64,000 bases of DNA, taken from NCBI GenBank assembly GCA_026387175.1, contig JAPLME010000010.1:62096-126095 (forward strand), given 5' to 3'. The notes beneath the pieces were generated by a model, which saw only the letters and a program-made list of their open reading frames with translations, was not told where the DNA came from and did not search any database. Position numbers and translations under genes: made by a program. Source of the DNA: Candidatus Omnitrophota bacterium (lineage in GTDB: Bacteria > Omnitrophota > Gorgyraeia > 2-01-FULL-45-10). This document shows positions 1-59,742 of the stretch, one piece after another. Numbering within the stretch: the first letter of the stretch is position 1; each line of letters opens with the position of its first letter.

Positions 1-3000
1 ATAGAATCCACTATGCGCTATGGTATCACTGATATAGTGACAGGTGCCCCCCTCGCGCAATATTTCGACGCACGTGGTAACGCGAAATACCAGATTACTA
101 CAACCTCAAACCAGTTAAATATTACGGGCGATATAGCAGAGGCGCGTTTCCAGATGGTCGATACGACTCAGCGTGAAAATATTAAATTCGACGACCGTGG
201 CAGGGTCACTTCATATAAAGAAACATCCATAGACGGCGCGACGAACGGCAAAGTTATCACAGAGTCTGTAAATACGATCACCGGCTATGATTATAAGAAT
301 AGGACCACGGCGATCGAGTCGCTCGCGCACAAACATGGCGAGGATGTTGCTACCGGTGAGATCCTTGACGAAACATCCTGGACGAAGCGGGAGATCCTCG
401 AGTATGACTCGCTCGACAGAGCAATAAAGTATGACGAACTTTCGAGAAGCACCACTACCGGAGCTTCTCTTATAAATGGAAAGCTCGATGGAGGCATCCT
501 TGCCACAAAGAATACGACCGGCGTGGAGTACTATTTTAACGATAGCATGAAATCATACTGCGAAGTAACCTCTGCGGATAATATCGATATGAAGACCGAG
601 ACATTACGTTATGACATGAAGTATACCTATCTGAATCAGCTCATCTCCGACACCGAAAAAGCCCATCAGCATGATATAAGAGCCGATCTTACAGTCATTG
701 TCGATATCACAGCCATTACCGAGAGAAGCGGCATGACCTACAATGCTGTGGGCCAGATGACGGAATTCCAGGTTAAGTCCTGGTCGACGGCGGCTACAGA
801 TAGCGTAAGCACCGTTAAGACGACTGGTATGACTTATAATCAGCTAGGACGCATGATTGACTCGACTTCAGATGAGACTACCGGGAATGTTGCCGGAGAG
901 GCGATCAGCCGTATCGAAAGCGCGCTCCAGGGCTTTGACATTCTCACTCTCGAAGAGAAGAACGCGAAACTCGATGAGATAGGCGGCGCTCTCGGCCTCA
1001 AAAAAGGTGATATCACAGCCCGCAAAGCTCTCATAGACATGGGCGTCGCAAACTTTATAACAAGACTTAAGTCTGTCGGGGCTTTTGTCCTGAACTGTGC
1101 CGCCGCCGCTCTCACTTATATACTGGGAGCGTTCGGTAAGGTCCAAGCGGCCTACGAGACCATAAAGAGCCTGATCCTTACTGATCTCCTTACGGGCGGT
1201 ATCAATCCGGCAAATCTCACCGGCGCGATCGAGACATCAATGTACGCCATTATAAAGACGGCCCAGAAGAATGGCCTTAAGTTAGCCGGTGGAGCTGTGG
1301 CTCTCGACAGCCTTATAGGGATTGTGAATACGGTTAATCCCGTAATAGGTGTATTTATGAAAGGCGCCGAGACACACTATGTAGCTATCATCTATATTAC
1401 GCAGACCGTTATCAGCTACGTAGAGTCAGGACAAGTAGTTACGGTCGAGCGAAGCGAATTTGTAAAGCAGTATCAGTATACGGGAAAAGTTATCGCTAAT
1501 GAGGATATGCTTCGCGCAGACGAAATCCTGAATAATGAGGAACAAATTAAAGCCATTCGGGCGACAAAGAGCGCGGTCGAAGAGATAAATCCATTCACTA
1601 CCATAAAGACAACGACCGTGAAGACCAATATCCAATATACCAATATACAGACGGGCCTGGCGACCACATGGCATGAATATACCACGAGCGATAGTTCACC
1701 CGATAAAGTAACCAATGCCGATGTCGAAGCGACCTATAACGACAAAGGCCAGATGCTCAGCTATCGTACGCGTATGACAGAGACGGGCATTAACGGCGAG
1801 CTTGGCAAGTTAGAGAGGTCTTACAGCTTCCTTAAGAACAATTTCAGTTACGATCAAGCAACGGGGCAGGCCTCGCAGTGGCAACAAACCACATATGCGG
1901 ACACTCAGTCACCGGATCTTGTGATAGATTCGACCGTTGAAGTTACTTATGACTCGCTGCTACACATGGCTACATATACTGAGCAGGGCCATAAGAAGAG
2001 TCTCACTGATGAAGCTATATATAACGAAGCTTATACGCTAAAAAAGACAGAGCTTGTCTACAATGCATTCGGCCAGGCAGTATCCTGGACCGAAAAATCG
2101 TCATCAGATCCAGCCTTTGATCCCGCCCTCAATAAAGTGACCACAACAAAGGTCGTTGTCGAATATGATGATCTTGGCCGGACAGCGAAGAAGACAGACA
2201 ACATTAGTGAAAATGGCCCTGGCCTTGACCATACATATACCATAGTAAGCGGGATAACGGGTTATGACGGCCTAGGCAGTGTAAAGCGTGTGACTAAGAC
2301 CACGACCGATGGCGATAAGATATCGATCGAGAGCGATACGGAAGATAAAGAATATGATAGCCAGGGCCGTCTTGAGTATTCAAGGACGGACGTAACCGAG
2401 AAGTCTAAGGATGGCATTAGCCTTAATCACAAATATGCAGTCGAAACTTTCATGAAGGACATTGCCGGTGTTACACAATACTACAATGACCTTGGCCAGA
2501 TCCTCAAAATGAAGCGGGTTACCATAGATGACGGCAAGATTACGACCGAGACTGACACAGAAAACAGGACATACAATTCGCTAGGGCAGTTTAAGTATTC
2601 AAAGGCTGCAATTAGAGAACAATCTAAAGATCTTGTCAGCCTTGACCATACCTATACACAAGAGATGTCGGCAAATGAGTATAATTTGCTCGGCCAGATC
2701 AGCATTATGATCCGTACCACCGTTGATGAAGGTAAGACGACTACCGAGATCGATAGAGCGAAAAGGACCTATACAGAGGCTGGCCAACTCAAAACGTCGG
2801 ATGTTGAAATCACGGAGAAAGGCGGCGCGCTTGATCATATGTATAGGACTTATACCGATATTCAATTATATGACGGCCTCGGCCAGGTTGCGCGCATGAC
2901 CCGCACCACGACCGATGACGAAAAGCAAACCGTAGAGGCTGATGACGCCGTTGTCGTAAGGACCTATGACTCGCAGGGCCGTCTTAAGCATTCGAAGACC

Positions 3001-6000
3001 GCCATCACTGAACAATCGATAGAAGGCAGCGAGCTTAACCTTAACCACACCTACACGGTCGAGACTTCCATTAATACCTATAACCCTCTCGGGCAGACCC
3101 TCAGGATGTCTCATATCACTGTGGATGACAACAAGACTACGACAGAGACCGATACAGCTAATAGAACATATAATGTAAAGGGCCAGCTCGAGACTTCCGC
3201 CACTCGGATAAATGAAACGGGAGGCGTTTTAAACCATACCTATGACACAAAGATGACTATTAACTCTTACAATGATATCGGTCAGATAGAGAATATGACC
3301 CGCACCACGACCGATGACGAAAAGCAAACCGTAGAGGCCGATGATGCCAAAGTTGTAAGGGCCTATGACTCGCATGGCCGTCTTGAACATTCGAAGACCG
3401 CCATCACTGAACAATCGATAGAAGGCAGCGAGCTTAACCTTAACCACACCTACACGGTCGAGACTTCCGTTAATGCCTATAACCCTCTCGGGCAGACCCT
3501 CAGGATGTCTCGTGTTACCGTTGAATATTTAAAGGCTGCGGATGGAAATACTATAGTTGGGAAGACCACGACTGATACTGACGTATCTGATAGAACATAT
3601 AATGTGAAGGGCCAGCTTGAGACTTCCGCCAGCCGGATAAACGAGAAGGGCACAGGCCTGGATCATACTTACTATACAAGCATGAGAGTTGACGATTACG
3701 ATCTGCTTGGTCAAGTCGCGCGCATGACCCGCACCACGACCGACGATGAAAAGACTACCGTAGAGACTGATATAGCACCAAGAGCCTATGACTCGCAGGG
3801 CCGTCTTGAGCATTCGAAGACCGCCATCACTGAACAATCAATAGAAGGCAGCGAGCTTAACCTTAACCACACCTACACGGTCGAGACTTCCGTCAATACC
3901 TATAACCCTCTCGGACAGAACCTCAGGGTGTCTCATGTCACTGTTGATAATGGAAAGACCACGACCGAGACAGATACATCTGACAGGACATACGATATAT
4001 TGGGCCAGCTTAAGACTTCCACAAGCCTGATAGAGGAAAAAGGCACAGGCCTGTACCATATCTATAATATGGGCACGACTATCCTATCATACAATACACT
4101 GGGTCAGACCTTGGAGATGATACGCACCACAATAGAAGAGGACAAGACCACTACTGAGACGGATAAGGCGGAGAGGACTTATAATTCACTCGGGCAACTT
4201 CTGACTTCAGAAACTGATGTGCGCGAATATGGCCCGGGCCTTGACCGTACTTACACAATGAAGACAAGGGAAATATTATATAACGCTATTGGCCAGGCAA
4301 AGCGCATGTCTCGCACCATAGAAGATGGCGGTAAGACCACGACAGAAGAGGATACGGCAGATAGGAGATATGATGACCAGGGGCTTCTCAGCGCCACAAA
4401 CATCCACTACGTTGAGCAGGATATAGGGACTAAGGGCCTTGTGTTCAACCATTCTTATGATACCCAGACAATGATGGAGTGCAATGCGCTTGAGCAGGTT
4501 AAAAAGATGAAGAAAATTACGACAGACAATGGCAAGGTAACCACGGAAGAGGATGTTAGTGAAAGGAAGTATAAACTCGATGGCAAGTTAGAAAGCTCAG
4601 TTACCCAAATCCATGAAGAAGGCACCGTAGACGGGGTCCAGGTTCTGGAAAACGATTATAGGCTGACGACCGATGTTAAGGAGTATAATCTGCTCGGCCA
4701 GGTTAAGCGGATGGTCCGTATTACAAATGATGGATACAGAGTAGTAACTGAGACCGACAATAGTGGCAGGCTCTATGACACAAGTGGCAGGCTCTCAAAG
4801 TCGAATGTGAATAACCATGAAGTCGGCAGCTTGACGAAGTTGGATATGGGCAACAATGAAGTCGGCGGGCTTAACGGAACAGTTGTTCTGGACCATGCAT
4901 ACGACTTGATTACCGAGATCACAAAGTATAACGATCTCGACCAGACCCTGCAGATGACGCGCACGACGGTTGATGGCAAGAAGACCACGGTTGAGCTGGA
5001 CATCGAAAAAGATAGAACTTACGACATTCTAGGCCGGGTACTTGACACGAAAATTGCCATCACCGAACAGTCAGATGATAAACTTAGTCTTAATCATACC
5101 TACACCGTAGAGGCATCTATAACAGTTTACGACATGATGGGTCGGGTGCTTCAGTCGACGCGCACTACTATTGACGGCATTGACGGCGGCAAAAAAACCA
5201 TAGAAATCGATACGAAGGATCGGGCCTATGATATTGATAGCAGGCTCATATATTCAATGATCAAGTGCAGAGATACGAATAAGGCCACAGAAACTGCCGC
5301 CGAAGGCGCCCTCCTCGACCACACATATACGTTAACGACTAATATAAATAAGGAAAACGGCTATAACAACCTTGGCCAGCTTCTCCTTATGGACCGCAAG
5401 ACCGTTGATTACGTGATTGTTAATGGCAAGCTTGTAGAAGGCAAGACTACAACCGAGACTGATATCTCCACCTCGCCCAGAACCTATAACGTGCGCGGCC
5501 AGCTCAAGACCTCTGCTACCAGTATCAATGAATCGGGAGGGGCCTTGCCCGGTAACGTGCTTGATCATACATATACTGTGTCAGTGGAAGCAGCGAAGTA
5601 TGACGATTTCGGCCAAGTTCTTCGGATGACCCGCACGACTATCGACTACGGCCAACTTACTACCGCGATTGATATCAACGCTGGCAAGGTCACGACCGAG
5701 GTTGATACGGCTGACAGAACTTATGATTCAGCGGGCCAGCTCACATATTCAAAGGCAAGGATTACGGAAACTTCCGTAACCGGGATGGCCCTTAATCATT
5801 CATCCTTCCAGGAGAAGACGGTTTATGAGTACAACTCTCTTGGCCAGGCGACGAAATATCGCGACATATCAACCGAGCTTCTCGCTGATGGCGTGACTAC
5901 AGGCGTTGTGACCACTTCCAATACCAGTGATGTGCAATACAATAGGCAGGGTCAGATGGCCAGCATGACCAGCGCTTCATCCGCTTCATCAGGCCCCGAT

Positions 6001-9000
6001 CTCACGACGGTCAGGACCATGTCGGATATAGTATATGACACACTTGGCCTGATGATTTCATATAAGGATGCGGTAACCCAGAAGTCGTATAATATTAACG
6101 GCGATCCGAATTCTGGGATTAAATTCAATACCACGGATACCGTTATAGGTTATCATACGTCAAAAGATAAAGATGACGCAGGGAATCTCACAGGATACCC
6201 TCTCGGAGGCACGGTCATATCAAAATCGGATATTCAGGGTGATGTCACAACCTGGGTATATGACGCGCGTGACCGGCTCGTGAAGATCCAGAATCCGGAC
6301 GGCAGCATAACAGAGTACGTCTACGATGGCGACACCACTCTTATCAGGAAAGAGATCTACACTCTTGCCGATGGCAAAACAAAGACCACTAAAGAATATG
6401 ACGCAGACGGCAGGCTTGTGAAAATAGCTAACCCTGACGGCACCACGATCACATGGCAGTATGACACATTGGATAGGCTGAATATAATAACTGACGCGGA
6501 TGGCATGACTTCTACTTACACCTACTATGGGAATACTTCGATAATAAACTCGATCGAGGATTGTGATAAGAATAGCAGCGTCGTTAAGAAACGGCAGGTC
6601 TACTCCTATTATGACGCTTCCAGAAATCTTGTCGCAGCTGTAAATCTGACCAGCACCTCGGCATATGAAACTTATACTATAACCGAAACTGATCTCGACC
6701 CAGGCTACCTCTCATTCGGCGGGAGCGACTATCTCCAGCTTCCTCTCATACAGTTGAAACAGAATGGCACTATTGCGATGTGGGTGAAACTGAGCAACAC
6801 AGGTGACATGGATATCTATGGCGATGATGCATCAGGAAAAGGCGGCGGCCTGCAGGTGAAGGATGGATTTTTCTGTAGTGTTGTGGGTGCCAATAGATGG
6901 TCGACCGGTGTAGCGGTGGCGGCCGATAAATGGTACTACGTTGCGCAGGTATTTACCAGTACATCGACCACGACTTATATCTACGACGCTGATGGTAATA
7001 AATTATCGGGCGCGACAAAAGCCCTCGCCATTACCCAACAAAATCCGGCTGTCTGTCAGCTCCAGGTAGGAAGATCCTCGACAGACGTTGCTTTAGGCCT
7101 TAACGGTTTCAAGGGACAGATCGATCAGCTTGCGATATATAATACGGCGCTTTCAGAACAAGAGATGGATATGGGTAGGTATTCCGAAGGATCTGCCAGG
7201 AGCATGACCCAGAAGCTTATGGCATTCTATTCGTTCAATGATGGCACCGCGACCGATCTGACCGGCAATAAATATAACGGTTCATTTATCGGAGATCCGT
7301 CTTTTGCCATGGGGGCCAGGCCTGGGGTAAAAACCAGCTTTACTGCCGATCAGTATGATAAGAATGGCACATATATAAAGTCCTATCTTCCTGTTTTTGG
7401 GAGCTGCCCCATAGCTACGGCTGCGCTTTGGCCTAGCGGATGCTGGTCTCAGTCAGGCTTGCAATCGTTTTCTGCAGGTAATGTGAACGATGGAGGCAGC
7501 AGCATCGCTTTTCATACAGACTCGGCTGCTGTTGGTTCATGGCTTACACTAGATGCAGGCTCCGCAAAAGCGTTTACCGGAGTTACGATCTGTTCCGGAC
7601 GATCGATCCAGCCGAATGTTTCCAAATGGGAAATCCAATGGTCCGATAACGCTTCATCGTGGACTACAACAGGAGATAAAATCGATCTTAGCACCAATTA
7701 CGGTGGTTGGGTGGAGGCGCGATGGGCAAGTACCGCAGGCGCCCATAGATATTGGAGATTATATAAGCTGAATGCAGCCTCCGGCGGCGATTATGTCAGA
7801 GAAGTTCAATTCTTTACAGGGACCGATAAATATGCCAATGCCAATCCTGTGTCGAACACCGCCTTTGTTGCGTCCCCTGCGCCTGTACCGCCGATAACTA
7901 CCGGGCCGATTGGACTGACAGTAACTACGCCGCAGGCGAGCACTGCTTCTTACCCGCCGCCGGTAGTTACTTCGGTGCAGGAAGATCCCAACACCCCCGG
8001 TATCCTTCTTGTCACCTGGGGAGATAAGGGCGGCACAACGCAGACGCAGCGAAAATTTGACTTATCGACAAAGGATTATGTGCTGAATCCTGATGGCACT
8101 ATCTTCGAAACATCGATAGCTTTACCTGCCTTGGCTCCGTCAGATACTCAGACCCTTAATCTCGACGGCGGCGCTTCCATAAAGTATTGGGACCAGCCGT
8201 ACGCAGACGGCGCGTTTTACGTAACCGCATACCAGAATTACGATAACAAGGGTAATGCAGTAGGCGAGGTGCAGTATATCGGCCAGGCGCGTTCTTCGTC
8301 CGGGACGCTTCCTGTCATGACAAAACTGTCCGATGGCGGTTTCGCGCTCGTAGGGTGGGATGAAGGCAAAAAGGAGCTATACTATACCGAAATTTCGCCC
8401 AAGATGAGCGTCTCTTCGAATACCTCCCGCACGGATATCAAGTATGATATCCTGGGCCGTCTCATGACATATACCGATGTATCGAGCTCCTCCGCCTCGC
8501 CTGACCTTGAGACGACGACCGATAGGTCGGAGACCAGATACAATGCCCTCGGCCAGGTCACCTCATATATCGAGACGACGGCGAGCAAGGAATATGGCAG
8601 CGCTATATATCTTGAGAATACTAAGAATATGAGCGCTATCACATACAATACCCTCGGTCAAATGACGGAATATGTGGAGAAGAGCCACGATATCAGTACC
8701 GCTCCCGCTTCGGAGAAGATGCTCCTTGACACTGAGACCACCACGACGCGGACCATAAAGACTTATGATAAACAGGGCCGGATGACGGAGTATACGGATG
8801 TGATCGCGCCGGTGAGATCGAATGATGCCGATATTTCCATGATCACTACGACTAAGACCGTAAAGGATATAACTTACGACCCTTCGATCGGAGGCATGAG
8901 CGGATATCATGAAGACTCCAATGATAAAGGCGGCATGGTGCGAATGGATGATGGGAGCGTTACGTACGCGCTTGACATTACAACGACGACAGACCGATCC

Positions 9001-12000
9001 GGCGTCATATATAATTCCCAAAACCAGATCGCCGGATATACGGATAAGATCACGACAGACGGCGATACAAAGATCGAAACTAAGACTATTTCCGGGATGA
9101 AGTATTCGCGCACCGGACGGTCGGCCGGAAGCGTTACAAAGACGCGTGAGACCGGATCCACCGTGTTGGACGGCTATACATACGCGCTTGATTCTACTAC
9201 GACTACCACCCAGACCGATCTTGTTTATAACAAACTGGGGCAGCTTACTAAATATACCAATGTGACGATCGCCGATGCCGCCCCTGAGCGTGCCACTACA
9301 CTATTCATGAAGAATATCAAGTATGACGTGACGGGCCGCATTATAGACTATGACCAGAGTACAGTTGAACGGGCCTCTAATACATATGACCTTAACGGCG
9401 ACGGGGTGCTTGATCAAGGCGATCTTGATGCCCTGACAGAGTATATGGTCAATAAGGCGAAGGCAGATCCGGGGTATGGATATTGCCGCATCGATATCAA
9501 TGGCGATAACAAGATCGATGCAATTGATATCGATATTATCAAGAGTGCGTTGAAACCCTTTAGCGAGGGCGGTTTTGATATGGATGGGAACGGCTATATC
9601 GACGATATGGATAAACAGATATTCAGTCAAAATCTGATGGCGATCATCTCCGAGCACGCTAATATTCAGGGTCCCATTTATGACCAAACCACTCTCGCTC
9701 GTGTTCCCGAAGATACTACGGGGAGGCAGTTCGTCTGTGATGGCTATCTTACCGGAACTAATTATAAGGTCTATGTCGATGGAATAGAGCAGGCCCAAAC
9801 CGGTGTATATACGGTGAGTGAAGCAGATGAAAAAACTACCATCACCTTTAATGCACGAATAAATACCAGCAGTACAGTAGCTCTTAGTCGGCTCATCCAT
9901 GATGCGCAGCCCGGATGGGATAAGCGCTTTGACTTGAATGGCGATAATAAGATCGACCTCTCCGACCTCGAAGAGGCGTCAAAGAGGATACTGGAAATTA
10001 AAACACTCCTTATAGAGAAGTCCAAGGATATAGATTACCTTGCTCTATCTACGAGCGGTAAATATGACCTGAGTTATTCCGGAGGCGGGTACGACCTTAA
10101 TAACGATGGTTATATAAGCGCTGATGATATTAAGACATTCTTCGCGACCGTTACTGTTGATGGCCAACAGATGCCGCTCTACCAGGCATGGCTGCAGGAT
10201 ATGATGGGGAGCGTTGTTCTCAAAAATCCCTCCGGGGGTACGACGGGTAATCAATTCGTCACGAACGGCTCTCTTTCAGGAAAGCTTTGCACTGTCTATG
10301 TCAACGGGGTTGCTCAGGTGCTGAATTCCATCGCATCTAACGGATATACAGTGCTTGAGACAGGGACAGGAAATAATATCGTCAGCACAATTACCTTAAA
10401 AGCAACTATAACTGATCCAAATGCGAAGGTAGAGCTCTCCGTGCGTAAGCTTGAGAATAGCGTTACCCTTGCCAGCGTTTCCGGAGATACCACCGGAAAG
10501 CAGTTTACCCTAGACGGCTCTCTTGCGGGAAGGCTTTACACGGTCTTTGTCGATGGGACAGCTCAGGTTCTGAACAGCGGATATACGGTGAGCGAAATGA
10601 CGGACAGCACTACACATGCTGTTACCACCACGATCACCTTCACTACTGCGATACCCATCGGCAAAACAGTGAAGCTCTCCCAATGGGTGACCACGCCTGA
10701 CAATATCGCGACGGCTAACCTGAAGTCAAATCTCCTACCGCTCTACGTTAACACGGTAAAGGATGGCAAGACGGATGAATTAATGGTTGAAAACCCGTAC
10801 CTTGAAAGCCTTGCTGCCCAGATTAATAAAGTCATAGCGCAGTGTTTTAACATTAAAGCGACAGCACAAGGCACTCCTGGCACGTTTAACTTCTCCAGTT
10901 ACCTGTATTCATTAGCTAATGCTAAATATAACATCACGCTTGATAAGGTAATAGGTACCGGCGATGGATCGACCACGAGATTTGAGACCGGCCTTACGCT
11001 CGCAGATAAGAGCTATCAGATTTTTGTTAATGGTCAACTCAGTAAGTCGACCAGCTACACTGTGGATAGCGCTGGCGCTGTAACTTTCACTGCGGCTCCC
11101 GCCTCCGGCCAGGAGGTCAAGATATCGATTACACAGGTAAGGGAGAATAAAGATATAGGCCCCGGTAATGGGTCGACCAAGAAGTTTAATATCGGCTATC
11201 CGATCGTAGGCAAGACGGTCAATGTCTATGTGGATAGCGTGGTGAACGGCGTGGTAGTGAGCAGTGCGCTAATGGCTAACAACACCTATGACGTTGACCC
11301 GATTTTAGGTACCATTACTTTCAAAACAGGTACTCCGGCACCGCCAGCCAATACGAAAGTCAGGATAAAAGTGGACAATTATGACTGTTCCGTTGATGAC
11401 GCCGCCAAGACCATTACCTTTAACAATAATATTTCTACGTCTGGCATGGATGTCATGATCAAGATCAATAGCTCCGTAGGCACACTTTCCGCCCTGGATA
11501 TCATCCAGACTTTTGACAGCAATGGCAATAAAGTCCTCGATATAGCCGATGTTAATAAGCTATGGAACGACTGGAAGAAAGGAAATTTCGTATTACCTGG
11601 AGACCCTACTGATACTACGGGTGCGGGATTTAGTGGTATTTACGCCCTGGAGCTGGCAAAGTTCCTCGGCGGCGGGCAAGCTAATGGCGCTATCTCCGGG
11701 GTGCTCGATACATCCTACAGCTTTAAACAGGGAACCGCCGACTTTATGGCATTGCTCTCTCTGAGTTCTGGCTTATGGGCAGCGACGGACTATTTAGAAT
11801 TATTGAGCAGGTTCAAAGGCTTCACCAATATTGCCGTGTATGACAGTAATTCCGATAAACAGATCAGCGCAGTAAGGGATACTATTACGGGAAAAACAGC
11901 TGATGAGACCGCGTTTAGTAATCTTATACAGGATCTTCTGTATAAGAGCGGAGTAATAAAGAAAAGTAGCCTCGCCAGCGATGACCCGCTTCTTAATCTT

Positions 12001-39000: not shown

Positions 39001-42000
39001 ATGCTTAAAGAGAACCACTGTCTCGACGCGGTAGAAAATATGATGGAAGCGTCGATGAAATTCACCGATGACTCAAGTAAATGCCGTGTTGTCGCGGCGG
39101 CCTCATTAATGCTCGAGGGAGCCATCAATAACGTACAGTCGTTCGACAGGTCAAAGATCGAAGCGTTTGCCGCGACGTTCAAGGAGATATTAAAGAGCTA
39201 TATGCTGACCGTCGGCGGCGCCTCTGACACTGCGGTCAAAGAAGCGGACGCGTTCCTGAATGCCGTATTCGGGCCTACTATAGATCTGGACATACTCAAG
39301 AACGGCTTAGAGAAGATGAACAAAATCCTGACGCCGCTTCTCAAGACGACCACCGCTCTCGACATGATGATAGGCCAGTCTAATTATACGGTAGCCCTGA
39401 CTTACGCGCTTGGCGGCCGTGATGGAATGGAGCTTATGGTAACCGCCAGTTTAAGCGTGCTGCCGGCCGCTTTCCGTGACGCGAGAGGTATCATCGATAC
39501 CTTTAAGGTCGACCAGGTCTCAGACCTCCTTAAATTAAGCCCAGTCGATAAGTCGGCATTAAACGGCTCCCTCGCTGGGAAGGATATTGGGCCCGTAATC
39601 TTTACAACGACGAATGGCACCGATTTTACGCTGGGCGCGCTTACTCCTACCACTGGAGCGGCACCTGCAGCTACCGCCGCCGCTGTCGAAGCTGCTAAGG
39701 CATCCGCCATTTCAAAAGATAACGCCCCCGCCGCATTGGGCCTGTCCGAAAATCGTTTATCTGCGGATGCCAGCAGAGAACTGATGTCTTACGTTTCTGA
39801 TGGTATGAGGAAGGCCGCTGGTCTCACAGGCTCAGAGGATATTTACTTTGTTGCCCGTACATCGGGAGGTAAGACAGACTATGTTGCATATAAGGAGGGA
39901 GACAGTAACTCGCCCTTTACCCTATCGAGAAACGGGGAGGGTGTGTGGTATCTCTCTCATTACGGCGATAATTATTTCTATGGCGGCACATATAAGACCT
40001 CATCCGAGATCAAAGAGATCGGCGAGAAACGCGGGATGATAAATTGTTCCTTCGATCTGACCACCGGCACGCTAAGCGGCCAGCTTCTCAAAGACGGTGT
40101 TACGCATGATGTGAAGATGTTCCTGAGCGGATGGCTCATGGCAGTGGACGGGAAAGCGATAGAGACGATTTCCAACTACAAACTGAACGTCAAGAATGCC
40201 GCCGGTGATACCGTTTCAATGGCCGGCAAAATGGAAGTATGGGGCTATGATGCTAGTGACACTCCGTTTGGCAGGTTCAGCCCATCCGAAGCGATAACTA
40301 TACCATGGGTACAGGAGATACTGTCCAGCGCGAGAAGCGCGGCGGATGCAGTGAAGACGGCCTCAGGTTCTGGAATGCCGGCGCTTCCCCCAGAGCTTAA
40401 GAACATTGGCCTGACCGTAAGCACCGGCGCGGACGGTGTGAATTACATCGAGATGACATCCCAGAGCGCTCTCGTAGTGGTGGGTGGTCAGCTTATGCCG
40501 TTTGCCAACCCGCAGGATGTAGCCATTAAAGCCGGATATACGGAGAAGGACGCTTACGGCAAAACGATCATGGTTTATAGTACGGATGCGATTGTAACAG
40601 GTATCGATGCCCAGGGTAACAGAATGTACGCGTCGGAGTGCTTCTATGAAAAGGAAGTCGCCGGAACGATGGTGCAGTATGTGTACGTTAAGGACATGGT
40701 AGTGACGGAGACCGGCGAGAAGGTGACAGGAGAGTTCTGCCTTGCCGGACAAAGGATAACCCGGGACTGTGCATTCTTCGGCGTTCCAGGCACCTATAAA
40801 TTTAACTTTATATCAGGCAGTGATTTTGAATTTGAAATTAACGGAAGAACGGTGAAGGCCGGCGGCTTCGAACTCGATCACGCTGTCGGACAGAAGATAT
40901 CGATTCCGGGCGCGACTTTAGAAGTAGTCGAAAACGATAACGGTGTTAAGAATATCAAGGTCTATTATACAAATGCGATATCCGCCTCGACATCTACCAG
41001 GGTGGGAGAGCTTACTATCGGACCCCGATCGCTTATCTTCGATGCCGCGAGCCTCGCCGCGGGAGGCCCTAGGGTGATCGCGTACCTTGTTGACGATGTC
41101 GCGATACAGGGCTCGACGCTGCGCGAATGCGTGCTGAAGAATGGCGCCCAGTTGGCGATTGGCATGGACGGGTCCTTCGTAATACAGCAGGGCACGATCG
41201 TCTCGGGATGCGTGGAACGCTTAAATATTAATGGTATGCAGGTCGCCCCAGGCCAGCAGAAGGCCGGAGAGTCGGGCGGAGCCGCTCCAGAACCGGTCAG
41301 GCTCGGTCACGACGCGGAAGGTACGCACATTCTCTTCAAATCCATCTCGGTAGTAAACGGTGATTTCGCGCTTTCATTAGGGCAGGAGATGGTCATTGAC
41401 AGCAGCTTTACGTCCGCTCCCGCGGGTACCACATTCGCTCTCGGTAAAGCTATCCTCACCGCGACCGGTAATAACTGCATCCTTAGCGGCACAGACGGCG
41501 TTACGCAGTTCACTGGACAGCGCATTGATATAGTGAGGAATGATAATGGACAGATAGCATGGGGAATACCAGGCCTCGCGGATTATCTGGCCGGTAGCGA
41601 CGTGAAGATGAGGGATATCTATAAGATGACTCTTAGGGGGGAGTCTATCGGATATGTGGCGACGGTCGAGACGGAAGGGGGGACGGCAAGAGTCAGCTTT
41701 AAGAGTATAGATGAGCTTAGAGCGGCCGCAGCGAATTTCGTGGATAATATGGAGAGGCGCGAGGTCACCCTGACAGATATCCATAATACTCTTAACGGAG
41801 AGAGGAATATCCCCGTTTCGAAATCCGATCTCTTGAGCCTGATGTGGCGCTACAGCGCGGCGAAAGGCAATGCCTTCGACGACTTTATTGACAGGATTGA
41901 AAGCGGCGAGATGAACCGCGCTATCGTAGACGGTATTATCAATTCGGGTGCCGGTCTAGAGAATCCGATCAAATATTCCATCCTCGAAGCCCTTACCATA

Positions 42001-45000
42001 GCGGGAGGACTCGACAAGAAGGTCTTTAATGCTCTCAAAAACAGGATAGAGAGCGCCGACGTAACCACTCAAGATATAGACGGAATACAAAATGGCGCCG
42101 CAGCCATTAACAAGAAGTTATCTGAAAAAGATCAGATTAAGCTCACGGATAAGGAGATACACATCGCGCTGATAACGATGAATGATAAAGAGCTTGCGGA
42201 TATCAGGAATAATATAGGTAATCCGGACATAAACGCCAAGAATATAACCGACACGATCAAAATGATCGATGCTGCGGTAGGAGAAAAGTTCAGCAGTACC
42301 CAGGTCTTCATGATGCTGATGAGGATGAGCGAGACAAAGCTCGATAACTTCATATCGCACATAGGTGATGCGAGGATAAACGCCGAAAATGTAAATGCTT
42401 TGGTTGACAAAGCTCAATCCGCCGCAGGAGTTGATCTTTCTAAGATGCAGGCCTTCATGATGCTGATGACTCTGGACGATAAGAAGCTCGATAACTTCAT
42501 CGCGAACCTGGACAACAAAGCCATAAATAGCGGCAGTATAGGCCTTGTGGTAAAGATGAGCGGGATTATGGGCAAGGGGATATCCAGAGAACAGGCCTTC
42601 TTCATGCTGATGTCGATGAGCCCATCTGCGGTGGGGAGTTATCTCGCTGGGATGAGGGAAAAATATGAGTTCTTGACGAATAACCAGGAAAAGATACAAA
42701 ACTACCAGAAAGCTCTTACTGAAGTAACTGGCAAAAAAGCTACACTGGCCCAGGCAATGCAATACGCTATTAGGGCTGGAGAGAATCCGCGGGACACTGC
42801 ACTTTCAAAATACGGCACTTTAGAAATGATCGGCCAAAAACTTCTTGATCAAGATAAGCTTGAAACAGCCATAACTACGGCGCTTAGTTCCTCATTGATG
42901 TTGGATCCGACGGCCCAGCTTGTGGCTGCGCTGACGGATACCTTAAGCAAAGAGTTAAAATCTCCCGCGCTTGAGCCCGGAGTGGAAAAGGCGTTATATA
43001 CTCTTCGAGCAATGAGGCTAGATGAATATGCCCTTCAGGCAAACGAATCCAATAAGGCACAAACATTATTACCAGGTACGAGAGCGGATGCGGCGCTTCA
43101 GTGGTCGGCGGCTGACGGGAAGTCATTTAATCTTGGAGGAGATGATTTTGGAGCTTTGGTTGATTCGCTCAAATATGTCGGCCAGGTAATACAGCTTGAC
43201 GCCGTAGCATACAAATTCTCAGCAGAGATCCAAACATGCCTGGTGCAGAAATTCGGGACCGACATCAAAAATATTGTATCAGGGATCTCTATTGCTGCTG
43301 TGATGCGAAGTTCCGAGGTGTCTGATGAAAAGATCATCGCCGCGTTTTCCGACCAGGCAGTTCAGGCAGTGCTCTATGGTAGATCCGCCGAGATGAGCAT
43401 AGTGACGGATGCGACCGGTACTTACCTGAAAGCCGTGCTCGATTGTTCAGCGAAGCCGATTACGTCAATGGTGAACGGCAAAGAGCTCCTATTCTCGAGC
43501 ATGCTGAGCCCTGACGGGATGACTTCTACGCCATTCTTATCGTTGCGGCTCCTTGGGAACGGCAGCTGGCAGACGCTCAATAGCATGGCCGCCGTTACTA
43601 ATGAAGCGCTTAATTCGGCTGATAAATCGACAGGCATATATACCCTTAATAAAAATGCTGTTATCCGTCTCAATGCCGATGGTGGCATGAATATCGCGAA
43701 TGGCGTGCTTACCCTCGAAGGCAGCGCATATATAAATGCGTCTGTCGAAATGGGTGGTATTGCAGTGGCGAAAGGTCTCCCCGGTAAAGGCGGGGCTGGT
43801 GAAGTGCAGACGATCCATGTTACCGGTGATGGTATTCTATATAATGGCACTATCACTATTTCCGATGACAGGGCGGTGATAACCGAGAAACAGGTCTTTC
43901 TGTTAGACAGCGGCGCTTCCCTTACCGTTCATAATGGTGACATCACAAAAGAATATAAAGTCGATATCTGTATGGTCAATGGCGATTTGCAGCGTTTAGA
44001 CTGGGCGGTTCATGGTGTGACCGCTAAACAGGAGATAGCAAAATTCCTAAACAATCTCCTTGCTGGCGCTCTCGAGATAAGGATGGGCACAGATGCTATA
44101 CGTAGCGGCCTGGGAGATAATGCACCCATAGATTCAAAAGCCATTGAAGCTCTCGCAAAAGGAATCGCGAATAATGATATCGGATACAAGGAGGCATTGG
44201 AAAAGATTTCCGAATGGGGCAAGGTCTTCAAGGTAACGGAATTTGGTACTGCCGCCGATGGCTTCGCGGGTTTAGTCACGGATAGCGGCGCAAGCTACGA
44301 TCTTGTCAAAGAATTTAATGCCAGATGCGTCGATATATCGGCTATGTTCGGGGTAAAAAATGCGGAGACCCTAAGAACGGATATGAGAAAGATGCTTGTT
44401 GAAGGAATCGCTTTGGCGGAAAAAGCCGTGGCCGCAGAAAAGTATAAACCTCTCTCTACCGATGATTCTGAAAGATCCCTGACGACTTATCGAGGCGCTC
44501 TTGCAAGACTTGATAGTGGTGCGCCGTTATCAGAAGTGATGGATATAGTGCGCTATGTCTATCATTCTTCGCTATTCGGCGGAGTAAGCCGGGTAAGCGT
44601 CGAAGATGAGCTTGGTATCGCAAAAGTGGGTATGAGTACGGATGGAGTTCTCGATATGGCAAGGAGTTATGAAAGAGCTATGATCGGTGGTGACCTTGTT
44701 GGGGCTTTTGCCATCCTGTCGAGCGAAAAATACAATGCGGCAGTGCAGGCGGTAACGCTATTGGGTGATGAGATAGGTCAGGATACTGCGCGCCGTATCG
44801 CTTTCGGGGACGATAAGAGTGCCAAGATGCCCACGATAGATCAGCTTACGAATGCGATCATGTTAGGCGGAGAGAATGCCCTTCTCGCGAAAACAAAGGT
44901 GGAGGAGATAAGAAGTAATAATGAGCTCTGGGCAGAGTCGAGATCCACGTGGTGGTATCAGGCATCGAGCGCCCTGATGGGCAAGCAATATGAAAAAGCG

Positions 45001-48000
45001 GATAGCTGGGATATCGCGAAGGGTGCGGCGAAAGGAAGCCTGGCTATAATTGCTGCTACGACCATTTTGGTCCTTTCAGGCGGTACTGCTAGCGTTGCGC
45101 TTGGGACGTTTGGTAATTTCATGCTGGGTGCGGCTTATGTAGGCGCTGGGGCCATGGCACTGAACCTTGGCGCATATACTGCATACGGGATGATTACGGG
45201 GCGTGATCTTTATACAGGACAGCAGGCTTCAGCGTGGGGCGCGATCGGCGGAGCCATTGGTGGTCTTGGCGAGGGATTTGCATTTGCTCTCGCGTTCCAA
45301 GGCGCTGGTGCGCTTCTGGGCAATTTCAGCAAAATCGCATCAGCTGCTGAAACTGGATGGAAAGCATATGCTGTGCAGGGAGTTACCTCCGGCTTGATGG
45401 GTGGCGTTATTAACGTCGGAAGAGAATGGCTTACTAGTGGAAATGACTACTCAATATTCAGTAAGGAAGCGGCTCGAGACTTTGCCATAGGATTCGGGTT
45501 AGGCGCGATCGGTGGATACCTCGGAGCTTGGGGCGTTAATTTCGTGAACTTAGGAGGGGCTGCCCATACAACTATCCAGACGTTGGTTACAGTGGTTAGT
45601 ATGGGCATTGTAAGTGCCATAGGTGGTCTTATCAATAGAGCTTACTTCGGAAGCCAGGGCTGGAAGAGCGGCCTCGGTAACTGGAATACCTTATTAGATT
45701 TTGGCTTTGGGGCGAGTATCGCCGCTGGATTAAAGCTTGCCAGTGCAGGGCCAGCAGGCGCTTCAAGATTTATAAATTTTGCCGGAGTTAATGGCGGTTT
45801 CTGGGGAAGCATGAATGGCGCTATCGCAAGGACGCTTATGGTGACCACATCCTCGATTGCGATAAGCATTTTCCACTACCGTGACAAGATTTGGGTAGGT
45901 GAAGATAACGTTTTCAACTCCTCCAACTTCCTGCTTGCGGCAGCGAATGGCCTTATTACGGGCCTATTCATCTCATATATCTTAAGTCCGCGCGGCATTG
46001 GCCATTTGGCAGGCAAGGAAATCGGTGGTGTTAAAGATGGCGTGGCCCAGAAGATCATCAAAATTACAGATACTACCAGCGCAAATATCACGTGGTGGCC
46101 TGGAAAGACACTACCCATTAATTTCCCTGGTGCAGGTCTTCTTGCGGAAGGCATCAGAGGCGCCATGGTATTCACATTTATTAGTCCAATGTTCTATACC
46201 TTTAATACGCTTGTGTGGAATCCATTGATCAAGGGTGAAAAGACGGGCTGGAGTTGGGAGCAGTTTGCGGCAAGCATACCGCAAGGATGGATCTCAGGGT
46301 TCTATCTACAGCCTCTGATCAGTATATTTACCATAGAGCTTACCCGTCCCGAAGGCTTTGGGCAAGTCTTTACGCAGAGTGGTCTTATAGGCAAGGCGAT
46401 GGCGATAGGAGAATATGCGGTATCATGGATGAGGGGAAAGGCATTTGCTGCTACCGAAGATACTCTATGGATGAGAGGTATTGCTGCTCTGGGCGGGCGT
46501 GTAGGTGCCGGTATAGTCGCGCTTGATCAGTATGCGTGGATATCCGGTTTTGTCACGGGAATAGATGCCGCGCTGGATCTTGTATCGGGTCAACGACTCA
46601 ATCCTCTCACCGGCAAGCCTGAGTCCACGGGACACATCGGTTTCTCGCTAGCCTCCAGAGAGATTCTCTCGTGGGCCGCGCTATTTATACTGCCGATGGT
46701 TAAATATACGGTAGAGGCACAAATAAATATCGCTCTCAGGAGCCTTGACAGGAGCGTGAAGGTTTCTTCCGCAGAGAAGGCAGAGTTCTACAGCTTTGTT
46801 GCCGGTATACGGGAACTGCAGGGAAAGGAGCAGGTGAAAATATTAGAAAGCCTTGCTAAATACGGAGAGACAACTTTCAAGGATCATGCAGGCAGGTTTG
46901 TTTCATATTATCTTAAAGAAGGCATGACTCCTCTTGCTACGAACGAGCTCATAAGGATGGGATATGGTGAAAGGAATTTTGAATTCCTGAGAGATCTCTG
47001 TTTGAGTGACGTGACTAAGCCTGACCAGAATATCAAAATCGAAGGTGTTGACATTAGTATCGATAAGTATATGTCCGGGATAGGGGACTCCCTCTTTATA
47101 ACAGCTATCGCGAATTCTGGTATTAATCTGAGAGATCTATGTCTATCGATCGATCCAGGTAAGATGGAGACGCTTGGTACTGTATTGGACAGGATGCAAG
47201 ACGTGCCGGCTGTTTCCGAAGCCCTCAAGGACGTTACGCTGAGAATGGATGCCCAGATGGCATTAGCAAAACTTGCGGGCCTCGAGACCGCATTTGCGGT
47301 AAACGCGCAACGCAGAGAGGAATATGTAATTAAGTATAATGAAGCGGTGCGTGAGTCAGGGTTAAAGCTGAGCGATGGTGAATTTACCAATGAGCAATTT
47401 GATGGTAGAGCTGTTGAGCAGAACCTTAGGGAGAGAATAAAGTTTGCCCAAGATGCTCAGGCGCGAGGAGAGAAAGTTGATGGGGCTGAGCTTATGAAGA
47501 TGAAAGATCTCCTGACAAGGCTGGATGTTATGAGAGGAGAATATGAGAATATAACCTTCGTTGTCATTGGCAAGGAGAATATTGCCAATTTCAGAGAAAA
47601 GAATATGATCGTCGAAGAAGCGTCGAGCGGTAAAGGCAATATGGACTATATACTCCTCGAAGGCGCTATCGAGAATCTTATCAGATTCAATCAGGATGAT
47701 ATCATGAAGCCGCAGAAGGAAGAGACGGAGACGAATAGAGGCTTTGCTAAAAATTGGGAGAATTTCACTATTCTGATTAAGGACGGACTCAAGGGTGGTT
47801 GGGGTAAGATGATGGAATATTTCACGGAAAAGAAGTTTACCGAGGCTAATGTTATCGAGGTCTTTGGCGGCAAGTTGTCAGGTGATTTCATCGAGCAAAA
47901 AGGTAGAGAGCTTACTGGTGGGCAATTGGTGAATGGAAAAATCGTTGGCGGGAAATCAGATGCCGATGTTAATGGTAAGAATGCTATAAAAGGTGATGCT

Positions 48001-51000
48001 GCGCGCATTATCATGAAGGATGCCCTTGGAAGGCTTCAACAGCAGATGGAGATACTGAGAAGCGCAGGTGACACCAAGTCAGAAAACTATAAGGACCTTA
48101 ATTGCATGACTAGAACGCTCAAAGAGTGGATTGAGTGCAGTGAAATTATGGGCGATGGATTTGCCTTACAGCCATCTCAGTTGGCATATACCTATCTTAT
48201 GGCTCGTTCAAAATTAGCTCAGATGGAAGGGAAGAATATAGGCCTTCCGACGTTTGTAGCAAGGGTCGGTGCAGGAAAGATGGACGGAAATATCATTGGT
48301 TGTTTTATCGCTCTGGGCATGTATAAAGAGGCGACCGGTAAGGGCGCGAAGATGGTAATCATTGTCGATGCATCCAGGACGGATCTTGTTAGTCAGAATA
48401 TTACAGTTGCTGACAGCATGAAACTTGTCCTAAAACTCGCTGGCAGGGGAAGCTACGAAGATCTTGCAGTATATAAGGTGGCTTCCAATGAAGGCGCAGG
48501 CGGCAATGTGCTGGCGCATCAGGCGACCTTAGGTAAGGATACTGCCGGGAAAGATGTGGTAATTATTTCGGAGGATGGCATAACTGATAAGAGCAAGATT
48601 TCTGAACAGGCTATGTTTTTCGCGACGACAAGGGATATCCAGGAACAGATTGCGCGAAGTAGAGATGGCCAGTCAAGCCTCATGACCGAAGGTTTTCTCG
48701 ATAGTCTGCATATAGATGAGATCCAGAATACGATTGCGGCAAATGACCTCATTAAGAGCGCGGGACACGATCTCTATAAGAGGTTGCAGGTGCTTTCGCC
48801 TGACCTTGCGGCCAAAATAGAGTATCGTTCGAAACTCATTGACAGTATGGTCAGATATGTCGCAGGAGTTCTCGATGTAGAAGGTGACTCGTGGGACGCG
48901 GATGTATTGAGACAGGCAGGGCTTATTGAAAGTGTCAAGGGTGCCGCCAGAAGGACATTTACACTCAATGAGGCCTTGACCGGGAAATTAGAGAATATGG
49001 TAAAAAGTGACTCACTATTCAGCGCATATATTAATGAAAAAGGTGAGCTCAGTTCAAGTTTCCATGATTTTATCAGAGAAGTGGTGACATCCTGTCTCAT
49101 GAATGACAGAGAATATTATAAAGACGATATGCGGCAGGCTTATGTGATGACTGATGGGGATAGTGGAATGCCTATGCCTAATACAATATTCGGTGATAAT
49201 CTTAGGGCTGCCTGCGTGGCGGCTAAACATGGCTGGGGGATTGAAAAGATAGCGGATTCATTGTTACAGCACTCTTACATGAATGTTTCGACCGCTGATG
49301 TGATAAAGGCGTTTGGTGCATGGAATACCACGGGAGGCACTGGTACTGCTGAAGGCACAAGAAAGACTATAGAGAATATCAATGATAAAGCGCCAGGCCA
49401 TCTTGCCAAAGCCACCACAGAGACGCCGCTCATCAATAATTACCATTTACTGAGAAATGGTGAGGATGCGACTAGAAATGAAGGAGCTGTCCAGGTAGGT
49501 GAGAGCATTAAACGAGGTACCGATGCAATAGCTATTACAAGTGAATCGAGGAACGTTTGCTATGACATGTATGGCCGCGTGAAAGACGCGTACAAAAATA
49601 TGCCTGTCTATATTCTGATCAGAGGAGAGACAGATGGCGGTCTTACTTGCAGAATGGCGGATGGTAGTTATATGACGTTCAATGATGCCGTTAAAGATAT
49701 AAAGACCAGATTTAATGACGGCGAAAAGATGGTCGTTATTATTCAGGGTCTCTCGACAGGAAGTAACATATTCGGGCTGAGGGAAGGGGTCTCGAGAAAA
49801 GCGGACGTTATAAAACTTGGGCTTACCAGTTACGACAACCTGCGCCAGATAAGCGGTAGAATTAACGATGAAGGCGGAAAGCGTGCCCAAGGAGGGAATT
49901 TCATCCAGATAGTGAATATGTTTGACAGAGATATTAAGGATTCCGAAAAAGCGCTTTTGAGCGATCTCGCCGAAAGCAAGGACCCCGTTGACCAGGAATA
50001 CCTTAAGCTAGCCATTATAGCTATCCAGTCGGAAATTAACATGGAGATCGATGAGAGCAGGCTACAGCAGTTCATGGAGAAGTCTGGTAATTCGCGGGCA
50101 AATATAGCTGAGAAGATGGCTGATATCAGGAGGAGCTCGGAAGGAATGCTGACATTGCAGGATGTGGTATCGAAGAGCATACCGGTCACAGTGGCCGGTA
50201 TAGGAATGATCCAGGGCATATCTCCAAGCGGTAGTAATGCATTGACAAATATGATGGTCGATATGACAGAGTCGGGAGGTGTAGATCTGGTCTTCAGGAA
50301 CAGGAACATAAACGGCGCTTACGATGATATTGTCATCGATGCGGTAACCGGCAAGGTTGATTCGAATACGCGGCTTACTTATGATGGTGCGGTCTTTGTG
50401 AAGAACGTGATTGCCGCCAATAATCTCTTAAGTGCCGCCGCGGATGCCCGTCAAGCGATTGCATTTGCCCTAAAGGATGCGGGGGTAATGACAGATGGTA
50501 TTACGACAGCTTTGGGTAATTATATAGAAGTAGAAAAAGGCGGTTCCACTGGTGTTAATATAGATGCAACGTTAGGGCTTGTAAAGGAACTGCGTACAAA
50601 TGGAATCTATGACGGCATTATGCCCATCAGCGTTCTGATAAATAACCTGGTTGCAATCGGAAACTTCTGGGGCGGTATCAAAGCTATTTCTAACACAGGG
50701 CATACTATGACGAAGGATGAGATAACTTCGATGGTAAAATCTAGTGATATCAGGCAATCTTTTGTGGATTATTGTGGGCGGATCGGTATAGAGACAGTAT
50801 TGATTAATGTCCTTAAGAATAATATAAAGGCAGAGAGAAATTTGCGTTTTATTGAAGAAAATTTGGCGACCGCTATCAAAATTTACGGACCGCAATCGCG
50901 CGAGGTCAAGAGCTTGCAGACCCAGGTTGAAAAAGCCCAGAGTAGCCTTAACATGTACACGATCTCGGTCAGGGAGTTCTTAAAGAATCAGGATCAATAC

Positions 51001-56244: not shown

Positions 56245-56269
56245 CGCCGTAGTTTGATTCGCGCATCTC

Positions 56270-56298
56270 TTGCAATACATGCCACCCTACGGTATAAT
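56270..56298 (+). promoter_or_regulatory. Sigma70-type promoter (TTGCAA, 17-nt spacer, TATAAT) for lgt; predicted start site falls on the lgt ATG, giving a leaderless mRNA
   Basis: TTGCAA at 56270-56275, a 17-nt spacer, then TATAAT at 56293-56298. The lgt ATG at 56305 lies about 7 nt downstream with no Shine-Dalgarno sequence. Confidence 0.5.
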
Positions 56299-56304
56299 TA
56301 CTCC

Positions 56305-57081
56305 ATGCATCCATTCCTATTCCAAGGCACGCCTTACGAGACGCCGAGCTGGGATGTTATTTTATTTGCCGGATTTTTTATCGCCTTGACAATAGCGCTT
56401 ATTGTAAAACCCAAAGATTTTCCGGTTACGCGCCGCGGTATCATAGCTTTCACCTTCATTACCTTATTTACCGGTTCACTCGGGGCCAAGCTTCTCTATA
56501 TCTTCCTTCACCGCGAAGAGCTATTCGGCGCTATGCACTTGTCATTCAGTGACGCCTTCCTATCATCCGGATATGCCTTTTTAGGTACCCTTGTCGCTGA
56601 GCTCATTACGATGTGGGCATTTACAAAGATCAGATTAAAACCGATCAGTTTTCTTGTCTTTGCGGACTTCTTAATGCCATTTCTTCTGTTACAGCAGGCG
56701 TTTACCCGCATTGGCTGTTTTTTAAACGGCTGTTGTTATGGCCCGGTAACAAACCTGCCATGGGGATGCGTTTTTGTGGATGAAACGGTCAAACGTCATC
56801 CCACGCAGATATATTTCGCCATAGCCCTCGTGATAATATTCTTTTATACGAGACATCTCTATAAAATGAAGCTGCCCAAAGGCATAGTTTTCTTCACAAC
56901 GCTCTTTACCTACGGCCTTTTCAGGTGTATACTTGAGTCATGGAGGGTCGATAGTCCTCATATCCTGGGGCCTGTCACGCTCGCGCAGGTCACGACATTT
57001 ACGCTCGCCGTTATCAGCGGCGCCTGTTTATATGCGATCATGGTACGAAACGGTCTTATAAAATCAAGGAGGAAGGGATGA
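56305..57081 (+). CDS. lgt: Prolipoprotein diacylglyceryl transferase (Lgt), 258 aa from ATG 56305. The ORF track extends it to a TTG at 56254.
   Basis: Polytopic membrane protein. It has the RIGCFLNGCCYG...WG motif (compare E. coli RLGNFINGELWGR) and HPTQIYFAIALVIIF (compare E. coli HPSQLYE). The N-terminal W..GFF region aligns with the E. coli WYGLMYLVGF region. Confidence 0.8.
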   Translation: MHPFLFQGTPYETPSWDVILFAGFFIALTIALIVKPKDFPVTRRGIIAFTFITLFTGSLGAKLLYIFLHREELFGAMHLSFSDAFLSSGYAFLGTLVAELITMWAFTKIRLKPISFLVFADFLMPFLLLQQAFTRIGCFLNGCCYGPVTNLPWGCVFVDETVKRHPTQIYFAIALVIIFFYTRHLYKMKLPKGIVFFTTLFTYGLFRCILESWRVDSPHILGPVTLAQVTTFTLAVISGACLYAIMVRNGLIKSRRKG

Positions 57082-59475: not shown

Positions 59476-59742
59476 ATGATGCGTAAAATATGGGCAATTT
59501 TATTAATGATCGCGGGTATGGCCGTTTCGGCGTTTTCGGTAGCCTTGATGAACGATTTTATCATGTTGGCCCGGCCCATCATCTTAATGGGCTCTAAGCT
59601 TCGGCCGAATAACACCGTTGTCGAAAGCGCCGTTGCGATGGCCCTTATAATGTTAATTTTTATGGTGGGCTTGGCGCTTATCGTCATAGCCGGTGTAAAT
59701 ATAATAAAATCATTTTATAAACAGGGAGGGAGACCTTCATGA
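59476..59742 (+). CDS. Small two-helix membrane protein (88 aa), translationally coupled between the two patatin genes
   Basis: A GGTGAGG Shine-Dalgarno sequence then ATGATG at 59476. Two hydrophobic helices (AILLMIAGMAVSAFSVAL, AMALIMLIFMVGLALIVIAGV). Its stop overlaps the ATG of the next gene (ATGA at 59739-59742). The ORF track extends the frame back to 59269, inside patatin 1, which is unlikely to be real. Confidence 0.55.
   Translation: MMRKIWAILLMIAGMAVSAFSVALMNDFIMLARPIILMGSKLRPNNTVVESAVAMALIMLIFMVGLALIVIAGVNIIKSFYKQGGRPS

Follow-up and report, generated by a model that had tools for sequence, protein, structure and literature searches.

Near-identical cores and diverged halves in three tandem YD-like units of a giant Omnitrophota gene

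How old is a tandem repeat whose copies look nearly identical? The question is raised by a contig of a Candidatus Omnitrophota bacterium (JAPLME010000010.1), of which we analyzed a stretch of 64,000 nucleotides (nt), hereafter the window. A giant open reading frame (ORF) occupies positions 13 to 56244 of its forward strand, on which all of the modules, units, tracts, and repeats described below also lie. Near its N-terminal end, a preliminary description had noted three units of about 134 amino acids (aa), taken for a recent triplication of a whole YD module at above 95% nt identity, still expanding and prone to mis-assembly. We find that each unit combines a near-identical core with a half that is close to synonymous saturation, and we consider it likely that an old triplication was followed by more recent gene conversion of the core.

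The three units and their mosaic identity

The existence and the limits of the three units were borne out. In the phase of the preliminary description, unit 1 spans positions 2899 to 3300 (402 nt, 134 aa), unit 2 positions 3301 to 3726 (426 nt, 142 aa), and unit 3 positions 3727 to 4125 (399 nt, 133 aa), all head to tail and in frame with the giant ORF. In a self-BLAST comparison, they align with one another when shifted by 399 and 423 to 429 nt (E = 0), a spacing that a repeat finder also returned, and all eight exact direct repeats of at least 25 nt found in the whole window fall within this region. The flanking repeats are more diverged, as had been proposed, the neighboring U0 and U4 being 40 to 66% nt identical to the units throughout. 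The identity above 95%, by contrast, did not hold: global unit-unit nt identity is 72.5 to 78% with gaps counted and 78 to 81% over aligned codons. The best self-BLAST segment between units reaches 82.6% over 340 nt, and Tandem Repeats Finder reported no array at the three-unit region. In addition, the codon alignment places a 30-nt insertion (LKAADGNTIV) in unit 2 only, at positions 3529 to 3558; it lengthens a hairpin loop of the predicted structure, with lower predicted local distance difference test (pLDDT) values there.

Each unit consists of an A-type and a B-type module of ~67 aa each, and the units owe their resemblance largely to the former. In the core of the A half (codons 21 to 71, 153 nt), nt identity between units is 94 to 96%, with a synonymous divergence (Ks) of 0.03 to 0.16 and a nonsynonymous divergence (Ka) of 0.04. 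In the B half, nt identity is 65 to 67%, Ks is near-saturated at 0.85 to 1.5, and Ka is 0.29 to 0.36, synonymous divergence being 10- to 50-fold apart between the two halves of one unit. The near-identity of the A half includes third codon positions, whereas many synonymous sites of the codon alignment differ between units in the 3' half. Among codons for the same amino acid, 60/63, 54/60, and 52/60 (87 to 95%) are identical in the A half across the three unit pairs, versus 19/34, 22/33, and 20/34 (56 to 67%) in the B half (Fisher p = 4.7e-6, 0.01, and 4.5e-3). What appears to be a near-identical triplication can thus be a mosaic, whose overall identity of 73 to 81% and whose age structure emerge when synonymous sites are compared half by half.

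The near-identity is confined to discrete tracts. Between units 1 and 2, a 219-nt tract at positions 2896 to 3114 is 94% identical to its counterpart at positions 3295 to 3513 and contains exact repeats of 81, 44, and 36 nt. The copy in unit 3 (positions 3784 to 3948) amounts to 155 to 164 nt that are 94% identical to the cores of units 1 and 2, the tracts of at least 94% identity pairing positions 2963 to 3126 with 3785 to 3948 (164 nt) and positions 3361 to 3515 with 3784 to 3938 (155 nt). The longest identical runs measure 81, 51, and 53 nt versus ~20 to 23 nt expected (permutation P <= 5e-5 to 2.5e-4). The first of these is the longest exact repeat of the window, at positions 2989 to 3069 with a second copy at 3388 to 3468 (run-length permutation P <= 5e-5). 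In the identity profile, the tract end points differ from pair to pair, and units 1 and 2 share a second patch of 86 to 93% identity where the B half begins; such differing ends and an additional patch are the patchwork expected of several conversion events. Discrete tracts homogenized at synonymous sites amid diverged paralogous sequence are the pattern by which gene conversion is recognized.

Age structure of the array and homogenization in relatives

A recent single duplication would give a uniform Ks along the unit. Since Ks is non-uniform, the triplication is probably old, with the A core homogenized later by short-tract gene conversion. In such a history, a two-module A+B segment (~134 aa) would have been copied in frame and in tandem near the N terminus of a giant Omnitrophota surface protein, and the copies would have diverged until their synonymous sites were nearly saturated. 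By homologous recombination, short stretches would then have been copied from one tandem paralogue to another in nonreciprocal gene conversion, with tracts of ~155 to 220 nt. This would have re-homogenized strands one to three of each A module together with the tail of the B module before it, while the remainder of B would have stayed diverged. Judging from this pattern and from what is generally known of how repeats evolve, we infer RecA-type intragenic gene conversion as the mechanism.

The units are part of an array of ~20 divergent YD-like modules of ~67 aa (positions 1735 to 5949, aa ~575 to 1979), delimited by motif anchors, module alignment, and module hidden Markov model matches. The module consensus reads YDxxGxL...LxHTY...YNxLGQ..M.RTT.D.GKTTTE.D...RT. 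The homogenized set comprises the A-type modules M4 (positions 2965 to 3168, aa 985 to 1052), M6 (3364 to 3597, aa 1118 to 1195), and M8 (3787 to 3990, aa 1259 to 1326), each followed by a diverged B-type module, namely M5 (3169 to 3363, aa 1053 to 1117), M7 (3598 to 3786, aa 1196 to 1258), and M9 (3991 to 4179, aa 1327 to 1389). A further B-type module, M3 (2770 to 2964, aa 920 to 984), lies upstream of unit 1 and is an older paralogue that shares 60% aa identity with M5 and M7. Its tail lies within the homogenized tract, with a 26- to 44-nt exact repeat across its 3' end.

M4, M6, and M8 are the sole outliers in a 17 x 17 module matrix, with 89 to 90% nt identity and a proportion of synonymous differences (pS) of 0.20 to 0.25. 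The B modules M3, M5, M7, and M9 are 59 to 70% nt identical with a pS of ~0.6 (70% and 0.59 for M5 and M7), and the remaining module pairs show a pS of ~0.6 to 0.9. Where two modules have the same amino acid, the fraction of identical codons is 0.85 between A modules, 0.59 between B modules, and 0.45 between other pairs, for an expectation from codon usage of 0.37. These three classes of same-codon fraction therefore point to an ancient array, to amplification of the A+B unit at an intermediate time, and to recent homogenization of the A cores.

Searched exhaustively with HMMER, 1.84 billion representative proteins yielded 45 relatives of the array at E <= 1e-3, the best being 41% identical; two of the homologues, P0004 and P0006, have their N-terminal architecture in common with the giant protein. 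No close strain was found, there being no relative above ~50% identity in any searchable protein or genome-contig collection. An indexed protein search with aa 1 to 2100 and with a 7-module profile returned no matches, the database evidently lacking the family, and a first genome-contig scan with the three-unit region as the query gave no confirmed loci. Searching with the 7-module alignment uncovered four distant DNA loci, in metagenome-assembled genomes (MAGs) labeled as Planctomycetia and Clostridia and in two metagenome contigs, all of them fragments of giant ORFs that are open across the entire contig. The MAGs with loci L001 and L002 carry the labels "uncultured Clostridia bacterium" and "uncultured Planctomycetia bacterium". 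Such labels could mean either that the family is broader than the Omnitrophota or that short contigs were mis-binned.

Homogenized modules recur among these relatives. Of the 44 proteins surveyed, with 245 modules between them, 28 have at least three modules, and 6 of these 28 contain module twins of at least 80% aa identity inside one protein. The A modules studied here are 76 to 87% identical among themselves versus at most 62% to any other protein's module, and the relatives, at most 44% identical overall, are too distant for positional orthologues. At L002 (CAZMYR010000045.1), a tract of ~170 nt is 100% identical between positions 7889 to 8060 and 8660 to 8834 of the contig, within units of four modules that have ~75% identity; the tract borders a scaffold gap of 100 N (8835 to 8934), and the modules on either side of the gap are 93% identical. 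The homologue P0010 ends at a contig break in three identical 67-aa modules, P0001 holds a large internal segmental duplication, and P0005 has three similar tandem modules of ~80 aa at aa ~1590 to 1830. Therefore, short-tract homogenization in older units is recurrent in the family, and assemblers break there.

Competing explanations and possible consequences

Several points weigh against an old triplication with later conversion of the core. Conversion is read from a single sequence, in which donor and recipient are not assignable, and the synonymous differences in the core are few (1 to 5 per pair). Moreover, a metagenome assembler could route a chimeric path through the 81-nt repeat; in principle, this would alter the order or number of the units and could not itself make their near-identity.

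The mosaic could also have arisen the other way round, with a recent triplication of the whole unit after which the B halves were overwritten by diverged modules or diversified by local mutation or selection. The Ka of the B half, far above that of the A core, would fit such a course, as would the gradient along which identity falls toward the 3' end of each unit. However, no module of the array matches any B module more closely than the other B modules do (best, 70% nt), and the B halves were therefore not overwritten from elsewhere in the array, while a Ka/Ks ratio of ~0.2 to 0.4 argues against diversifying selection. Even though donors outside the window are possible, we regard this course of events as improbable.

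The assembly itself could be at fault, if collapse, expansion, or chimeric joining of strain variants had produced the mosaic or the number of units. The contig comes from a MAG, the 81-nt exact repeat loops a de Bruijn graph at k below 81, and in relatives the homogenized modules coincide with a contig end (P0010) and with the 100-N gap (L002), so that the warning of mis-assembly in the preliminary description is well founded for the family. At the locus itself, the risk is modest. Duplications made by an assembler are identical copies, whereas here the units differ from one another in their B halves and in private substitutions, and unit 2 has its private insertion; the copies are therefore not an assembler's duplication. 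The reading frame is intact over 56 kb, and the exact repeats are shorter than normal read lengths. An artifact thus seems very unlikely to account for the mosaic or the unit count, but a loop through the 81-nt repeat could conceal extra near-identical units.

The explanation first put forward, in which slipped-strand or unequal recombination recently triplicated the whole unit and continues to expand it, would account for units that are tandem, in frame, and mutual closest relatives along their full length, and truly identical tandem modules do exist in relatives, such as the three at the end of P0010. It is contradicted by the Ks values of the A core and B half and by the Fisher tests. A whole-unit identity of merely 73 to 81%, a Ks that is uneven across the unit and near saturation in its B half, the failure of Tandem Repeats Finder to detect an array, and the gain of a private 30-nt insertion by unit 2 likewise make it highly improbable. 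Of the two processes invoked, recombination has clearly acted; slipped-strand events are unlikely, since the ~400-nt units share at most 81 identical bases. Finally, the conserved synonymous sites of the three copies might suggest that nucleotide-level selection (on RNA structure, an embedded regulatory site, or an overlapping gene) keeps the A core identical, a hardly credible idea given that shuffling the 164-nt tract does not weaken its fold (z = +0.25), that no Rfam family matches anywhere in the window, that the antisense ORFs across the three cores are alike in neither frame nor extent, and that orthologous modules of relatives are only 53 to 62% aa identical to the A module.

The proposed core conversion has precedents. 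Gene conversion in tandem-repeat surface proteins is well known, and the streptococcal alpha C/Rib and M proteins and the staphylococcal repeat adhesins show concerted evolution by the intragenic form of this process. As in these proteins, the units described here are in frame and in tandem within a large extracellular protein, short tracts near-identical at synonymous sites lie within older diverged copies, the stretches of identity are long enough for RecA-type recombination, and lineage-specific homogenization is recurrent. In the classic streptococcal and staphylococcal cases, the repeats usually show near-identity over their full length, and strains visibly differ in copy number, whereas here ~40 to 55% of each unit is homogenized. 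Patchy conversion is an ordinary process in repetitive bacterial genes, probably at work here in an unusual gene, and our understanding of repeat evolution is unchanged by it.

For the giant genes of Omnitrophota, repeats have been described as ancient duplications whose nucleotide tandems have dissolved, in a 2026 complete-genome preprint that makes no mention of gene conversion (bioRxiv 10.64898/2026.06.07.730766). The bulk of the array and the B halves are in agreement with this description, being negative in Tandem Repeats Finder and at or near synonymous saturation. Unlike them, the A cores form a local exception, with tracts of 155 to 219 nt that are ~94% identical, and they indicate that homologous recombination is still acting inside Omnitrophota giant genes.

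The spacing of the cores bears on what recombination could do at this locus. The core-core offsets of 399, 423 to 426, and 822 to 825 nt are all multiples of three; therefore, unequal recombination would add or delete whole units of 133 to 142 aa (8 strands) in frame. The identical stretches of 51 to 81 nt at in-frame offsets of 399 to 825 nt could support such exchanges, and judging from the sequence, copy-number variation of the units is plausible. One may further speculate that populations of this Omnitrophota lineage maintain the A cores as recombination hinges, the in-frame gain or loss of 8-strand units tuning the length or surface of a YD-like β-sheet fiber. The in-frame offsets, the 81-nt stretches, the homogenized or amplified modules that independent lineages have of their own, and the assembly breaks are in line with this role, which we nevertheless consider doubtful. 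If true, an episymbiotic or predatory bacterium would thereby possess a device for length or antigenic variation, located at the tip of a giant protein for cell contact.

The YD-like module in its giant gene

The designation of the module as YD, made in the preliminary description, holds for its motif and appears to hold for its predicted architecture but does not extend to membership in the curated family of RHS repeats. Between aa 575 and 2008, 38 anchors of the Y[DN]xxG[QR] type alternate between two contexts, and across the module alignment, Y1 and G5 of the recurrent YDxxGRL-type motif are invariant or nearly so. The Pfam model PF05593 gave no match at E <= 10 on the three units and the 1,195-aa array and was positive in the same scan at aa ~2070 to 2190. 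The NCBIfam YD-repeat model (TIGR01643) found no match in aa 1 to 2100, and none on the units up to E = 10, nor did a PDB sequence search with the module profile return any. When this profile was aligned by hhalign with the protein's own canonical YD repeats, 9 columns only were matched, corresponding to the YDxxGRL motif (hhalign probability, 8%). The ~67-aa YD-like module is thus rare and outside Pfam and NCBIfam coverage, and a new profile would be useful. Among candidates that we rejected, a match to TIGR04497 ("ATP-grasp RiPP target") at aa 994 to 1009 covers 16 residues with 16.8 bits versus a cutoff of 32, and the weak Pfam matches of the units to Ig_TMEM131_2, CLP1_N, and Sec8_N all fall under their cutoffs.

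AlphaFold2 models, built from shallow alignments of non-overlapping paralogous blocks from the window, were obtained for four modules (274 aa; pLDDT, 89.6; predicted template modeling score, 0.74) and eight modules (533 aa; 86.4 and 0.66). Both predict an unbroken antiparallel β-meander with four long strands per module, and DSSP assigns no helix in the 533 modeled residues. In a Foldseek search against the PDB, all 13 significant matches are shells of the Rhs/Tc/teneurin type (best, 8uy4_A; E = 1.2e-8), with global TM-scores of 0.12 to 0.26. Judging from these models, "YD-like" is a fair label for the local architecture of the array.

With the canonical RHS/YD repeats (PF05593 and TIGR01643) of Rhs effectors, the Tc toxin BC component, and teneurins, the module shares the YDxxGRL motif and, judging from the models, appears to share long β-hairpins in a continuous antiparallel sheet. 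True RHS repeats adjoin the array in the same protein: five PF05593 stretches (E = 1e-24) at positions 6220 to 6582 lie directly 3' of the divergent modules. The period, however, is 67 aa (4 strands) rather than ~20 aa, and unlike closed Rhs cocoons, which have an Rhs core or aspartyl protease and encapsulate a C-terminal toxin, the giant protein shows no Rhs-associated core or toxin domain in Pfam scans of its entire 18,743 aa.

In both its size and its origin, the giant ORF fits the Omnitrophota giant proteins, since its host belongs to the Omnitrophota and its length exceeds 10,000 aa. The listed length of 18,743 aa, taken from the ORF list, is a lower bound: the first 12 nt of the window lack an in-frame stop, leaving the frame open to base 1, and the homologues P0001, P0004, and P0005 have 400 to 1,100 aa more on the N-terminal side of the equivalent of residue ~20. 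The full protein is probably longer, truncated by the window edge. Omnitrophota giant proteins have been reported to carry N-terminal C39 domains and an RHS-like antiparallel β-helix region of ~1,500 aa, forming a hollow tube with regularly spaced exterior α-helices; nucleotide-level homogenization was not discussed (West-Roberts et al. 2023, bioRxiv 10.1101/2023.11.21.568195). The protein studied here likewise stems from Omnitrophota and has a borderline C39-like match on its N-terminal side as well as dockerin/EF-hand and F5/8 type C domains, and its array, unannotated, ~1,400 aa long, and all-β in the models, appears to resemble Rhs shells as does the published region. Unlike the published β-helix, our 274- and 533-aa models contain no helices.

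The putative C39-like papain-fold peptidase domain lies at positions ~1060 to 1482 (aa ~350 to 490), with Cys362 in the sequence NCAAAAL and His455 in THYVAII; its match to PF03412 (E = 2.7e-4, 21.2 bits) is just under the cutoff of 22. Both residues are kept in P0004 and substituted in P0006. Downstream of the canonical RHS repeats follow Laminin_G_3, F5/8 type C (discoidin), and dockerin/EF-hand domains (positions 6715 to 7164, 7468 to 7794, and ~9385 to 10150), with Pfam E-values of 8e-27 for Laminin_G_3, 5e-7 for F5_F8_type_C, and 5.4e-7 for Dockerin_1. The remaining ~13,700 residues (aa 5001 to 18743, positions 15013 to 56241) are essentially without Pfam matches, EF-hand and dockerin hits there being sub-threshold only. 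This portion holds several further internal repeat families, which show no near-identity at the nucleotide level, and C-terminal hydrophobic segments. Composition is heterogeneous inside this single gene: GC content is 0.50 to 0.53 at 36 to 42 kb, and GC skew reaches +0.10 to +0.23 over the final ~16 kb of the giant ORF (positions ~40000 to 56000), compared with ~0 to +0.05 upstream.

The proteins encoded next to the giant ORF have identical counterparts (MCX5678597, MCX5678598, and MCX5678603) in a Candidatus Omnitrophota MAG, on a contig of 234,929 nt. On its 3' side, the genes are ordinary bacterial ones, encoding Lgt, a cold-shock protein, two patatin-like proteins, an ArsR-type regulator, and a proton-antiporter subunit. 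The Lgt gene (positions 56254 to 57081) is followed by the paralogous, tandem genes of the patatin-like phospholipases (58230 to 59465 and 59739 to 60956), whose products have lipoprotein-type N termini. A patatin identical to that of the window is encoded in the Logan assemblies of SRR25046533, ERR15302182, ERR15302191, and ERR15302175, and several public samples therefore contain this strain or one very close to it.

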